From Candidatus Heimdallarchaeota archaeon (GTDB taxonomy: Archaea > Asgardarchaeota > Heimdallarchaeia > Heimdallarchaeales > Kariarchaeaceae), in contig JASBSB010000007.1 in NCBI GenBank assembly GCA_030149205.1, positions 120,001 through 152,000 on the forward strand: a stretch of 32,000 nucleotides of DNA, given 5' to 3'. Position numbers and translations under genes: made by a program. The notes beneath the pieces were generated by a model, which was not told where the DNA came from, made no database searches, and saw nothing but the letters and a program-made list of their open reading frames with translations. Of the stretch, positions 1,900-15,323 are shown piece after piece. Each line of letters begins with the position of its first letter. The first letter of the stretch is position 1.

Positions 1900-2316
1900 A
1901 TGCTTATTGTCAAAAATAAGAGGCTGGGGTTTTCATCAGCTCACATTACTCTTGAAGATGGAGATTGGCGATTACACGGTCATAATTTCGAGGTCGAAGT
2001 TCACTTGGATCTGAAGTATAGAAGGTGTGGAGTTGAGTTATATGAGGATATCAAGGGTATTGTTAACAGATTTGATCATAAGGTTATTCTCAACGATGAT
2101 GAGCTAAAAACAAGCAATGGAAATTCAATTGTTGAAAAGGGAGGTGAACTATTTTCATTTCCAAATGAAGATGTTTTAGCTATACCGGCTACAACAGACA
2201 CTTTTCAAATCGGCTGTGAGCTTTTTAAATTGTTATCTCAAGAATTTCCAATTCAACGGTTAATCATATCAGCAGATGAACTGTATTGGCATGAAATTTC
2301 CTCAAATGATTTATGA
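1900..2316 (+). CDS. 6-pyruvoyl-tetrahydropterin synthase (PTPS/QueD) family protein, divergent
   Basis: FSSAH...RLHGHNFEVEV and FDHK motifs. Lacks the catalytic Cys upstream of HGH. Confidence 0.75.
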   Translation: MLIVKNKRLGFSSAHITLEDGDWRLHGHNFEVEVHLDLKYRRCGVELYEDIKGIVNRFDHKVILNDDELKTSNGNSIVEKGGELFSFPNEDVLAIPATTDTFQIGCELFKLLSQEFPIQRLIISADELYWHEISSNDL

Positions 2317-2985: not shown

Positions 2986-3336
2986 CTACTGTAGGTTAAT
3001 TGTTTCCTCAGCATAGGAATCTTGGTCTTCCCAGACACGAATGGTAATTAATTGCAGGTTATCTGTATCAGGTAGTAAACGGAAGTCATTTAACAAATGT
3101 AAAACTATATTTTCCGCAGTGGGTTGTGTTATGATATCATTTAAAGTAATGTGATCATATTTGTAGATTATCTCTTTGATTTTCGTGAAGTCAATAATCA
3201 TCCCTTCTTGATTAATCTGGCCCTCTAACTCTACTTCAACAAGATAATTATGACCATGCATCCTGACGCATTTACTTTGATATGGGAGATCTAATTGATG
3301 AGCACTTGAAATTTCAGCTCGGTAGTAAATTTTCAT
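2986..3336 (-). CDS. queD: 6-carboxy-5,6,7,8-tetrahydropterin synthase
   Basis: SSAH...CVRMHGHNY (CxxxHGH), IIDF, YDH, PTAEN, VWE motifs intact. Confidence 0.85.
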   Translation of the reverse strand: MKIYYRAEISSAHQLDLPYQSKCVRMHGHNYLVEVELEGQINQEGMIIDFTKIKEIIYKYDHITLNDIITQPTAENIVLHLLNDFRLLPDTDNLQLITIRVWEDQDSYAEETINLQ

Positions 3337-3396: not shown

Positions 3397-3729
3397 TTAT
3401 TCCTCATCGATCTCTGAGATATTCTTTAACAACTTAACTATAATCTTTAACAATTCAGCCTCATCTTTATTTATTATGGTATCTCGATTTGAAACGTTCC
3501 AGGTGTCTTCTAGGATCTTTGATCTCATTATTTTAAGTTTCTTTGTTTCATCTTTATCCATTATATTATCAGCAAGTGCTTCTTCTAGATATTGGTAAAA
3601 TTCCTTTAATTTTATTTCAACTTCATCAATTATGGCTGCTTCATCATCAGTGAGTATCCCATCTTCTAGGGCTTTTGTAACCAAATCGTCAATTAATTCC
3701 TCATACAACTCTTGAGGTTTTTTCTTCAT
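3397..3729 (-). CDS. small acidic helical protein with three internal D-x-I-x-x-x-E repeats (TerB/EF-hand-like)
   Basis: Repeats ALEDGILTDDE, ALADNIMDKDE, SNRDTIINKDE. Similar to 10944-11255. Confidence 0.6.
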   Translation of the reverse strand: MKKKPQELYEELIDDLVTKALEDGILTDDEAAIIDEVEIKLKEFYQYLEEALADNIMDKDETKKLKIMRSKILEDTWNVSNRDTIINKDEAELLKIIVKLLKNISEIDEE

Positions 3730-10788: not shown

Positions 10789-10874
10789 GGGTGCATAGTT
10801 TAGTGGCTATAACGCTGCCTTGACGAGTTGTCTCAAAATGGCAGAGGTCGGCGGTTCGAGTCCGCCTGCACCCA
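10789..10874 (+). tRNA. tRNA-Val(GAC) with 13-nt intron at 37/38 (10826-10838)
   Basis: Acceptor GGGTGCA/TGCACCC, anticodon stem CTGCC/GGCAG, T arm GGCGG-TTCGAGT-CCGCC. BHB core TTGA/TCAA. Confidence 0.92.
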
Positions 10875-10943: not shown

Positions 10944-11255
10944 ATGAGTTTTACTTCAGAAGAAGAACAATGGCAGAATATCCTAACAGAAATGGTTCTA
11001 ACTGCATACCAAGATGGGGTCATTACTGAGGAGGAGAAAGCTATATTAGCCGAGCTTCAAAAAGAGCTAAAGAACTACGAAAATAAAAACACAGAATTGA
11101 ACCTTAACTTAAATCAGGAAGAAACTGACTCAGATTTTAAAAAAAGGGTTCTAAAAAACATATACGAGGTCTCCTCTAAAGATTTCAATATTTCAAGGGA
11201 TGAGAGAGCATTAATTAATAAATTAATTAAAATGTTGATACCACGCAAGAACTAA
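10944..11255 (+). CDS. small acidic helical protein, paralogue of 3397-3729
   Basis: AYQDGVITEEE and SSKDFNISRDE motifs. Confidence 0.6.
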   Translation: MSFTSEEEQWQNILTEMVLTAYQDGVITEEEKAILAELQKELKNYENKNTELNLNLNQEETDSDFKKRVLKNIYEVSSKDFNISRDERALINKLIKMLIPRKN

Positions 11256-11292
11256 AAAAATTATATACCTGATTAATATAATTATTTATGCA

Positions 11293-11976
11293 ATGTCTTC
11301 ATTTATATTTTATAATGTTAAAAAGGATGGTGAGTTTGAACCTGTAGATCATAAAAAAAGTGCGTTCAATGCACGTAGAACTATAGTAGTGCAAGATCCC
11401 TTTGACAAAACAATTTGGGTTGTAGATGGAACCAGCTCAAGTAAAGCTGTAAAGGAGCAAGCTAGACTTAGAGCAAAAGAATTGAATGCAGAATTGGCTT
11501 TTCAATTCCAGATAAACGAAGTTGATAAGAAAAAGAAAAACAAGTTAATTGAAGAGCTTTTAGAGAAAAGTGCCTTGGAACCTCCAAAAATAGAGTTTAT
11601 TCAACCTTCGAAGAAAAAATCTAAGGAGATGAATAAAAATAACCAGAAGGAACAACTGCCAAATACTATTAAAGAAATGATTTCAAGAGATATCCCAAAG
11701 GTGAGTTCAAAAATAAACAAGTCTTCCTCCTCTGTTTTACCTAGGGGAGATCTTGACGAGAGCAAGAAGGGGCCAATGATTCAAGAATTCCAAATCGCGT
11801 ATATTGATGATGATGGAGAACAGGTTACAAAAAAGGCAATCACCACATTTACCCCAATTATAAAGTTTGTACAATCACTTGAAGAATTACAAAGAAAGAA
11901 TGCAACACAAGATCAAGCAAAAAATATCCTCTCAGATGTACTAAATGAAATTGTCCTCACTTACTTTTTAGAGTAG
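11293..11976 (+). CDS. putative gelsolin-like domain protein with low-complexity linker and C-terminal helical region
   Basis: N-terminal ~80 aa FNARRTIVVQDPFDKTIWVVDGTSSSKAVKEQARLRAKEL resembles the gelsolin-repeat consensus (manual pattern only). Confidence 0.45.
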   Translation: MSSFIFYNVKKDGEFEPVDHKKSAFNARRTIVVQDPFDKTIWVVDGTSSSKAVKEQARLRAKELNAELAFQFQINEVDKKKKNKLIEELLEKSALEPPKIEFIQPSKKKSKEMNKNNQKEQLPNTIKEMISRDIPKVSSKINKSSSSVLPRGDLDESKKGPMIQEFQIAYIDDDGEQVTKKAITTFTPIIKFVQSLEELQRKNATQDQAKNILSDVLNEIVLTYFLE

Positions 11977-13252: not shown

Positions 13253-14269
13253 CTACCTTGTTTTACTTAATATATTCATTAATACCCGTGGAACATCTTC
13301 ATGGCTGCTTACTGGAGCGTACCGACCACCGGTTTTCCTAGCCATGTCTTTACATAATCTTTGTCCCCACTCATACTTTGAGGGTAATCCTAATATGTGA
13401 AGCTTTGAAAATCTATGAAGTTGCTTCCTTGGGTCTCCACCTTTGTTGAACACTCCATCGGTGACCAAGATCGCAAATTTGTTTCGATCAGTCATTTTCG
13501 CCAACTCAATACCCCCAAGCTCTAGGGCTTCTGCAATGTTAGTATACCCTGCACTTTCTGCATCTAATATACGATCTACCAATGAGTTGATATCAATTTT
13601 TTCATCAACTCTTTTAATCAGATAAGGTTTGGTATTAAAGAGGATTACTGCATATCTATCATGGGCAAGGTGATAAGCCATCACAGCAACAGCCAAAGCA
13701 GCAGTCGTGAATTTTTCACCATATAGAGAGCCAGAAGTATCAAAAATTAGCACCCCAGATTTAGTTTTTTCCTTCCTCTCCATGGCTACTATTGTTTCAT
13801 AGGTAAGATATCCAGTTTCCATAAAATTCTCTAGTGTTAACTCATCATCGAACTCATCTACGTCTGGGGAATATTCTGTTTGTACCCAAACATTTCCTCT
13901 TAAACCTCTCCCTAGTATTCCTTGGGATACCTTAATAATGCTTCGCCTTGCAAGTCTTCTAAAAATTGGTTTAGTTCTTTCACTCAGATAGCCTCTGAGC
14001 ATGAAAAAAAGGTTTGGTGCTGTGTTATCACCAGAAGCTGCTCTTCTAGTTAGTAACTGTAATCCCTGTGAATTAGAAAGAGCGTCTGCCACAGAGTTTG
14101 GATTCGACAAAGCCAAGCCTTTGATTGCAGGGATGTTATCAACCTCTATAGCTGTGTCTGTCTTCTCTTTAATTGTCATGAAATCCATACCCTTTGAGAG
14201 TTGATGAAATTTCATTGGATTTCTCCTTCCTCGTACTATTTCAGCTTCAAGTACCTTTTCTTTGCTCAT
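13253..14269 (-). CDS. von Willebrand factor A domain protein (CoxE-like MoxR partner)
   Basis: MIDAS DTSGS, T (GYTN), TDG. SD GAGGT. Confidence 0.88.
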   Translation of the reverse strand: MSKEKVLEAEIVRGRRNPMKFHQLSKGMDFMTIKEKTDTAIEVDNIPAIKGLALSNPNSVADALSNSQGLQLLTRRAASGDNTAPNLFFMLRGYLSERTKPIFRRLARRSIIKVSQGILGRGLRGNVWVQTEYSPDVDEFDDELTLENFMETGYLTYETIVAMERKEKTKSGVLIFDTSGSLYGEKFTTAALAVAVMAYHLAHDRYAVILFNTKPYLIKRVDEKIDINSLVDRILDAESAGYTNIAEALELGGIELAKMTDRNKFAILVTDGVFNKGGDPRKQLHRFSKLHILGLPSKYEWGQRLCKDMARKTGGRYAPVSSHEDVPRVLMNILSKTR

Positions 14270-14334
14270 TTTACCTCGAAATGAGGGAATGCGCCGTAGA
14301 AGCTCATCAGGAATTTCTTCATTAATTCCTTCAC

Positions 14335-15210
14335 TTATATAAAATCCTCATCGTTGAGGATTTCTAAGATGACCTCTTTTAGGACATCTTCAACGCGTCT
14401 CTCAATCCCATCTTCAACCTCAACCTTCGTTGCCAAGGCCATTACACCTGCTTCAATCCAAGATTCTTTTTTCTCTTTATCCATAAATTGAAGAATGCTG
14501 GCATAATCGATAGCACCCCTTATTGATGATCCTCTTCGTAGGTCTGGCCACTCTCTGGTCAAACGTGTGATTTTCACAGTCACCCTCACAATATCCTCAT
14601 CATCGACTCCAGATCTTACTCTGGTAATTTGTTTTTCTTCATCCTCATCTTGGTATTCTAATCTAACCCAAGCAAATCTGTCTTTTAAGGCTTCACTCAA
14701 TGGAGTGGTAGCAACAAATTCTTGAGGATTCATTGCACTTATGACATAAAAACCATCTTTAGATATCACAGAGCCAAGCTTAGGGATAATAATACTTTTT
14801 TCATCCATAGCGGAAAGTAGAACATTTTGTGTTCCTTCTGGCATTCTGTTTAATTCATTGAGGAAGAGAATTGAGCCGTTTTGCATTGCACTTACCAACG
14901 GTCCTACCACAAAAGATTCCCAACTATATCCTTTTTGCATAACCATGGGTGGGTCAAAATGCCCCACAAGTCTTGCTGCACTGTATCTCTCATCTCCATC
15001 AACCCTTTCAATATTTTGTGAAAAGTATTTTGCAATGGCATGAGCCAATGTTGTCTTCCCCACACCCACATCCCCTTCAAGAAGAAGATGTCGACCTGCT
15101 AATTTCGCAGCCAAGGATTTCCTTAGCTCAATTTCCCTACCCACAATATTGAACTGATCCTGAATTTCCTTAATCATTTCATCAATGTTAGTTGTTTCTG
15201 TGGCATTCAT
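14335..15210 (-). CDS. MoxR-family AAA+ ATPase
   Basis: Walker A GDVGVGKT, Walker B LFLNE, sensor SAMNP, EALKDRF. ATG 15210 preferred. Confidence 0.9.
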   Translation of the reverse strand: MNATETTNIDEMIKEIQDQFNIVGREIELRKSLAAKLAGRHLLLEGDVGVGKTTLAHAIAKYFSQNIERVDGDERYSAARLVGHFDPPMVMQKGYSWESFVVGPLVSAMQNGSILFLNELNRMPEGTQNVLLSAMDEKSIIIPKLGSVISKDGFYVISAMNPQEFVATTPLSEALKDRFAWVRLEYQDEDEEKQITRVRSGVDDEDIVRVTVKITRLTREWPDLRRGSSIRGAIDYASILQFMDKEKKESWIEAGVMALATKVEVEDGIERRVEDVLKEVILEILNDEDFI

Positions 15211-15323
15211 AATTTTCCCTCGTTTCTTCAACGATATGGTCTTTTATAATGCTAGAATCTCTTTTTTAAAAAAGTCAAGTTTACTAACAATAGAATCTTG
15301 AATAAAAAATCTAAATATCTTCA

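Follow-up and report, generated by a model that had tools for sequence, protein, structure and literature searches.

The gelsolins of Asgard archaea have been described in three architectures, namely ProGel, which is the gelsolin domain alone, 1DGelX, in which the domain is joined to an unknown domain X, and 2DGel, which has two domains (Akil et al. 2020, PMC7444086). 1DGelX severs actin independently of Ca2+ whereas 2DGel is Ca2+-controlled, and in the single-domain Asgard gelsolins Ca2+ sites are missing and activity does not depend on Ca2+ (PMC7444086). ProGel binds G-actin weakly, with a Kd of ~337 uM (PMC7444086). Under its later name, GelX, the 1DGelX type is described as a gelsolin-homology domain that an extensive linker connects to domain X (bioRxiv 10.1101/2025.11.30.690169). 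Several functional gelsolin paralogues are usual in a single Asgard genome (PMC9433394). The two genes described here, A and B, lie in the genome of a Heimdall-group Asgard archaeon that encodes a eukaryote-type actin (contig C2, 232008-233114; Pfam Actin, 445 bits). We consider it rather probable that B is a lineage-restricted mini-gelsolin that putatively regulates actin without Ca2+, and that A is a separate TerB-like protein with which it is possibly co-transcribed.

The window, by which we mean the whole 32,000-nucleotide stretch of DNA analysed, has archaeal housekeeping genes around the pair, including FAU-1/RNase E-G-like, a small SWIM-like protein and exosome Csl4 (NCBIfam E 1e-42). 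A convergent gene for a bifunctional PGI/PMI shares 20 bp with the 3' end of B. The features of the locus are as follows.

3397-3729, minus strand: A', a 110 aa paralogue of A, orthologous to the copy that is convergent to and directly downstream of B in the other three genomes of the genus
10789-10874, plus strand: tRNA gene (ARAGORN; Rfam RF00005, 59.3 bits, E 1.5e-12)
10944-11255, plus strand: gene A, an ORF of 103 aa
11256-11292, plus strand: A-B spacer of 37 bp, AT-rich, without an oligo-T terminator
11293-11976, plus strand: gene B, an ORF of 227 aa

The tRNA gene is positioned between the Csl4 gene and A, and since it separates the two, A would start a new transcription unit. TATA-like AT-rich stretches can be read ahead of A and B alike, the one in the spacer being ATTATATA, ~26-34 nt before the ATG of B. 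No terminator-like site was found in the spacer by a bacterial-type scan, which does not apply to archaea and serves here only to note that a hairpin terminator is absent. It is possible either that B is transcribed by read-through from A or that it uses a promoter of its own, and the two genes may be co-transcribed. The tRNA gene itself is 86 nt long with a short anticodon-loop insertion, and its anticodon was not named by ARAGORN; by eye it reads as tRNA-Val(GAC), interrupted after position 37 by an intron of ~13 nt.

The N-terminal domain of B escapes direct searches. B has no match beyond noise in Pfam, NCBIfam or PDB sequences, PF00626 gives no match above the gathering score, and a Pfam Gelsolin scan of its genome at E<=1 found other loci and missed B. 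Within the aligned family the same Pfam model detects one member of 30 (E 0.028). The structure predicted by AF2 with the family alignment has residues 1-95 at a pLDDT of ~96, the linker and motif that follow being disordered, and these residues are arranged in the beta-beta-beta-beta-long helix-beta-helix order of the gelsolin fold, in which one long and one short helix sandwich a central beta-sheet. The top Foldseek match in the PDB is 7c2f_B, the Thorarchaeota ProGel bound to actin (E 2.3e-5, TM 0.86 on the target, rmsd 1.9 A), and among the matches listed every top match contains a gelsolin-family domain. VIA-align, a search independent of Foldseek, superposes residues 3-91 on 7c2f over 88/88 residues with a Z of 14.4 and an rmsd of 1.8 A; on the same scale other gelsolins reach Z 11-13, Sec23/24 gelsolin-like domains 7-10.6 and ADF-H/cofilin ~6. 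The B-family profile likewise has ProGel as its best PDB match, aligned end to end at a marginal E of 0.03. Residues 1-95, as modelled, are thus a very divergent gelsolin/cofilin-type domain. An initial annotation of this DNA had proposed two same-strand ORFs 37 bp apart, the second with a gelsolin repeat at its N-terminus, and had named structure and profile searches against gelsolin as the check. The ORFs are as it described, and the gelsolin call, made on a protein undetected by Pfam, proves correct by the predicted fold, by the ProGel profile match and by the GelX homology reported below.

B belongs to a small family. Searched exhaustively with HMMER, a set of 1.84 billion representative proteins returned only 37 relatives, and a word-index homologue search a single relative each for B and A. 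One B-family member carries a source name, 'hypothetical protein', from a Kariarchaeaceae MAG. The loci related to B, sought with a 9-sequence subset of the 30-sequence family alignment as query, come from Heimdallarchaeota or Kariarchaeota MAGs. The layout is constant throughout the alignment, with an N-domain of ~95 residues, a variable Lys-rich linker, a conserved motif and a C-terminal helical segment, which in B correspond to the following parts.

11293-11577, plus strand: residues 1-95, predicted gelsolin-fold domain (AF2, Foldseek, VIA-align and hhalign)
11578-11742, plus strand: residues 96-150, basic Lys-rich linker, pI 9.9, predicted to be disordered
11743-11805, plus strand: residues 151-171, KGD...GPxIxEFQIAY(Y), the most conserved part of the tail
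11818-11967, plus strand: residues 176-225, predicted acidic helical hairpin, pLDDT ~95 (AF2)

The hallmarks of the N-domain in the family are R28-R29, D35, W42, G46 and a helix with AxxxAKxLN. The canonical D...W-x-G motif is absent from the family, the residue two before the Gly being I, V or L, although D35 is kept in 28/30 members, G46 in 30/30 and W42, four before the Gly, in 25/30. The linker contains a family-conserved I-P motif (P135). In the motif that follows, 26 of the 29 members having a residue there retain F166 and 27 retain I168. Since residues 151-171 are conserved yet predicted by AF2 to be unstructured in isolation, GPxIxEFQIAYY is probably a binding motif. The hairpin matches only generic helical hairpins in VIA-align, at a Z of ~6-7 that lies below the noise level for helical folds, and an ESM Atlas search with the tail was uninformative. 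The tail module was not found on other N-termini, C-terminal-only matches being either of the same architecture or N-terminally truncated fragments.

Beyond its own family B is related to GelX. When the B-family profile was run phylum-wide against 301 genomes, 177/301 matched; full-length matches are confined to the order of the window, and elsewhere the match covers profile positions ~1-130 within ORFs of 290-340 aa. These proteins of ~300 aa are marked by IWLWKG and by a basic helix with RKKF, and a linker of Pro, Thr and Lys leads to their larger C-terminal domain; they fit the published GelX plan, with which we equate them by architecture, not by direct sequence comparison. The genome of B encodes two such paralogues.

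Contig C7, 150213-151082, plus strand: GelX-type paralogue of 289 aa, missed by Pfam Gelsolin
Contig C4, 112237-112860, minus strand: GelX-type paralogue of 207 aa, barely detected by Pfam Gelsolin (22.2 bits)

Both carry IWLWKG/YIWSG and RKKF/RKRF motifs and a C-terminal domain X with PxGYxRE...YxPRVxI...AIEL. A canonical 2DGel is also present (contig C2, 186982-187716), so B coexists with GelX-type and 2DGel proteins in one genome. Alignment of the B family with the GelX-type proteins by hhalign gives a probability of 98.3% (E 1.1e-14) over 95 columns that fall in the N-domain only, and by this comparison the N-domains of B and GelX are homologous. The idea that the tail of B is a remnant of domain X was rejected, as hhalign detects no homology between the B tails and domain X (probability 0.2%, E 0.3). 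B itself is laid out like 1DGelX, in that a single gelsolin domain at the N-terminus is followed, after a linker, by a C-terminal region that is not a gelsolin domain. On these alignments it derives from the GelX stock, is restricted to one order and has a tail that is new and shorter.

Several neighbours of the pair recur in relatives. The window has a gene pair of VWA and MoxR-like AAA+ (AAA_5) at 13253-15231 on the minus strand, convergent to A-B and beyond PGI; in the other three genomes of the genus the MoxR-like AAA+/VWA pair is directly upstream of A-B on the same strand (locus L001, 3570-5527), the VWA N-terminus being by eye better conserved than A or B. The proximity of these genes to A-B is probably local synteny. 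PGI is a recurrent neighbour of A-B in two orientations, convergent in the window and on the same strand in a genome of a second genus (G007). In sister families B homologues adjoin QueD/PTPS-like and QueC-like genes by eye (loci L009-L011 and L014), and in the window two QueD/PTPS-like ORFs, 1900-2316 (plus strand) and 2986-3336 (minus strand), flank the A' region, also by eye; they may be what is left of an earlier gene arrangement. A' sits 7.2 kb from A-B in the window, so that here a rearrangement has broken up the cluster.

Each of the four genomes of the genus has an A-family gene immediately ahead of B and in the same orientation, and in G007 (contig C431, 180-2064; L008/L034) PGI, A and B are packed tightly on one strand, with overlaps of 4 bp. 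Compared with all A-family paralogues of the genome of the window, the adjacent copies of these genomes match A best, and by a clear margin, which identifies them as orthologues. In a third genus (G004) an A-family gene is found 1.3 kb upstream of B, on the opposite strand and separated from it by one gene, and this copy is ambiguous among paralogues (61.2 vs 60.8 bits). No A-family gene occurs within 1.5 kb of B in three further genomes of the same family (G005, G006 and G011), in three genomes of family f4 or at one locus of family f2. The initial annotation had proposed synteny as a check on the pairing, which is kept within part of the family and is not conserved beyond that family. The adjacency could be no more than inherited local synteny of fairly close relatives, devoid of functional meaning, as MoxR-like AAA+, VWA and PGI genes are likewise near B in relatives, the pairing is seen in three genera only, and genomes with 11-25 A-family copies make some adjacencies likely. 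Against this, the order A-then-B is intact across three flank arrangements, tRNA-A-B-PGI in the window, VWA-A-B-A' in the other genomes of the genus (G001-G003) and PGI-A-B in G007, between which A and B are only 35-44% identical, and the 4-bp overlaps of G007 are typical of coupled genes. Because the pair persists despite differing flanks and at such identity, there is mild evidence that selection acts on it, and synteny without function is an explanation we regard as possible but with the balance leaning against it.

A second alternative is that the gelsolin fold of B has been repurposed, as in Sec23/24, so that B does not bind actin and serves another interaction through R28-R29 and the tail motifs. 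The canonical Trp of the WG motif has been lost, the region reading IWVVDG in B against IWLWKG in GelX, and the basic helix motif RKKF of GelX is not kept, both of which weigh against actin binding and suggest that the actin interface may have changed. The nearly invariant R28-R29 have no counterpart in the GelX consensus, and 2DGel and GelX-type proteins already serve actin in the genome. The Sec23/24 gelsolin-like domains, which to our knowledge do not bind actin, also match B, at the Z of 7-10.6 given above. The best and near-complete structural match of B is however an actin-bound Asgard gelsolin, and its long helix has a conserved face, AxxxAKxLN, as would be expected of a binding surface at the canonical position. 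The several functional gelsolin paralogues that are normal for Asgard genomes (PMC9433394) also count against the argument from redundancy. We therefore hold a loss of actin binding to be unlikely, and prefer to view B as a divergent, putatively actin-binding gelsolin.

Gene A encodes an acidic protein (pI 4.85) that AF2 predicts at low confidence (pLDDT 60) as four helices in two hairpins. Foldseek found nothing with this low-confidence model, and a direct search of PDB sequences gave noise only. A repeat motif claimed for A in the initial annotation is present, once at residue 24 (D-G-V-I-T-x-x-E) and again at residue 80 (D-F-N-I-S-x-x-E); of the middle repeat of its paralogues A has a degenerate form. 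The family signature is two to three copies of D-[GN]-x-[IV]-[TS]-x-x-E, ~30 residues apart, with four invariant acidic residues. TerB (PF05099) scores 21.4 bits on A against a cut-off of 24.4, covering residues 7-42 only and ~36/118 profile positions. It is the most consistent Pfam match, occurring in 6/10 aligned family members with a best E of 9.6e-7, and the ESM Atlas clusters nearest to A, offered as a lead only, are TerB-family proteins of ~100 aa (score 0.89). It is thus reasonable to regard A as TerB-like. The identification of A as an EF-hand protein was rejected, there being no PS00018 match in the ten aligned members or in the A-family ORFs of the same genome and no EF-hand Pfam family in A or the aligned members; of the 'EF-hand/TerB-like' label given initially, only the second half is reasonable, with a sub-threshold score for A itself. 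TerB is also the N-terminal domain of DjlA, and TerB domains are said to have been predicted by Anantharaman and colleagues in 2012 to bind ligands or metals. The literature searched mentions TerB function only in passing, with a prediction of ligand or metal binding for TerB domains (bioRxiv 10.64898/2026.10.19.760177).

The A family is heavily expanded, with 14 small ORFs scattered over the genome of the window, of which examples are listed below.

Contig C2, 502548-502868; contig C4, 456002-456316; contig C9, 3724-4056 and 6055-6390: A-family paralogues

These TerB-like mini-proteins have ~100-120 aa. Across the taxonomic family the number of matches per genome is mostly 11-25, with one in a single small, 80%-complete genome; two sister families have 5-8 per genome and the largest sister family almost none. 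The other A copies of the genome adjoin unrelated genes, none of which matches the B profile. Some A-family matches in relatives sit within longer open frames of 235-761 aa.

Calcium control within B finds no support in its residues. The Type II Ca2+ signature of gelsolins is an Asp that opens the core strand together with a Glu seven residues past the motif Gly. The 2DGel of the same genome keeps these residues in both domains (GDVYVID...WIGKYSSVDE and DDVFIVD...WVGKNANREE). B reads RRTIVVQD...DGTSSSKAV at the corresponding positions, so that, in a register set by sequence and not by superposition, both signature residues are absent and Thr/Arg and Val replace the Asp and Glu of 2DGel. Across the family the alignment has R and S/T in columns 29/30, and T/I/V/L in column 53.

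The initial annotation had gone further and proposed a two-gene Ca2+-responsive actin-regulatory module, in which A would be a Ca2+ or metal sensor that binds B. The orthologous adjacent pair of the genus and G007, which persists with its 4-bp overlap despite differing flanks, the four invariant acidic residues of A in two D-x6-E loops that recall the latter half of an EF-hand loop, the predicted ligand or metal binding of TerB domains and the resemblance of the unstructured motif of B to a docking site all speak in its favour. Set against the lack of any EF-hand pattern or Pfam match in the A family, the scatter of ~14 A paralogues of which the others are beside unrelated genes, the loci of B with no A neighbour that leave the pairing to part of one family, the missing Ca2+ signature of B, the Ca2+-independence of known single-domain Asgard gelsolins (PMC7444086) and an A model of pLDDT 60 in which no binding site is visible, such a module appears very improbable.

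Our preferred model is that of an actin-regulating mini-gelsolin encoded beside an independent TerB-like protein. Actin binding by B, the role of its tail and any interaction between A and B are points on which we infer. The gelsolin domain of B would descend from the same stock as that of GelX/1DGelX, with the linker, the GPxIxEFQIAYY motif and the acidic hairpin replacing domain X. B would most likely bind and regulate the actin of its own organism independently of Ca2+, with the long helix of the gelsolin domain as the putative primary contact. A second contact may be provided by the tail, through binding to the side of F-actin, self-association or a partner. A would be a TerB-like helical protein from a heavily expanded family of the Heimdall lineage that forms an orthologous pair with B in two genera. 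A more novel reading, in which A is a ligand- or cation-sensing adaptor that docks on GPxIxEFQIAYY or on the acidic hairpin and so switches actin regulation by B, is in our estimation a long shot. If true, the TerB-like mini-proteins, mostly 11-25 per genome, would constitute a lineage-specific set of regulatory adaptors, and actin dynamics would be under signal control by a route unlike that of 2DGels and eukaryotic gelsolins, whose Ca2+ sites are intramolecular. Concrete hypotheses that are cheap to test follow from the conserved motif of the tail and from the TerB-like neighbour with its orthologues.

Relative to TerB (PF05099), A shares predicted helix-loop-helix units with the D-G-x-I-x-x-x-E loop motif, and its family differs from TerB generally in being archaeal, stand-alone and massively expanded. 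For B, comparison with 2DGel (PDB 7C2H, 7WHF and 7WHG; PMC9433394) reveals a common gelsolin fold, at Z 12-12.8, and the same actin toolkit. 2DGel however combines two domains with a WH2-like motif, conserves its Type I/II Ca2+ sites and is under strict Ca2+ control, while B is a one-domain protein whose Type II positions are not acidic. ProGel (PDB 7C2F) is, like B, a single gelsolin/cofilin-type domain of ~90 residues with no Ca2+-site signature. The two have ~16% identity, the W-x-G of ProGel corresponds to W-x-x-x-G in the B family, and ProGel is the domain alone where B adds a 130-residue extension of linker, motif and hairpin. In overall plan B resembles 1DGelX/GelX, represented by Thor_GelX and B35_GelX of L. 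ossiferum, in which a long linker of low complexity likewise joins a gelsolin domain at the N-terminus to a C-terminal module. Differences are the length of ~290-340 aa and larger domain X of GelX against the 227 aa of B with its short motif and hairpin, the absence from B of the IWLWKG and RKKF signatures, and the R28-R29 pair particular to the B family. Since the B family, annotated as 'hypothetical', is invisible to Pfam, Pfam-based inventories of Asgard gelsolins undercount. What is new here is the orthologous, conserved TerB-like neighbour, the expansion of its family and a tail unrelated to domain X. The B family is a modest extension of a protein class already described rather than a new system, such that in one Heimdall order a further single-domain gelsolin, with a tail of its own, stands beside ProGel, GelX and 2DGel.
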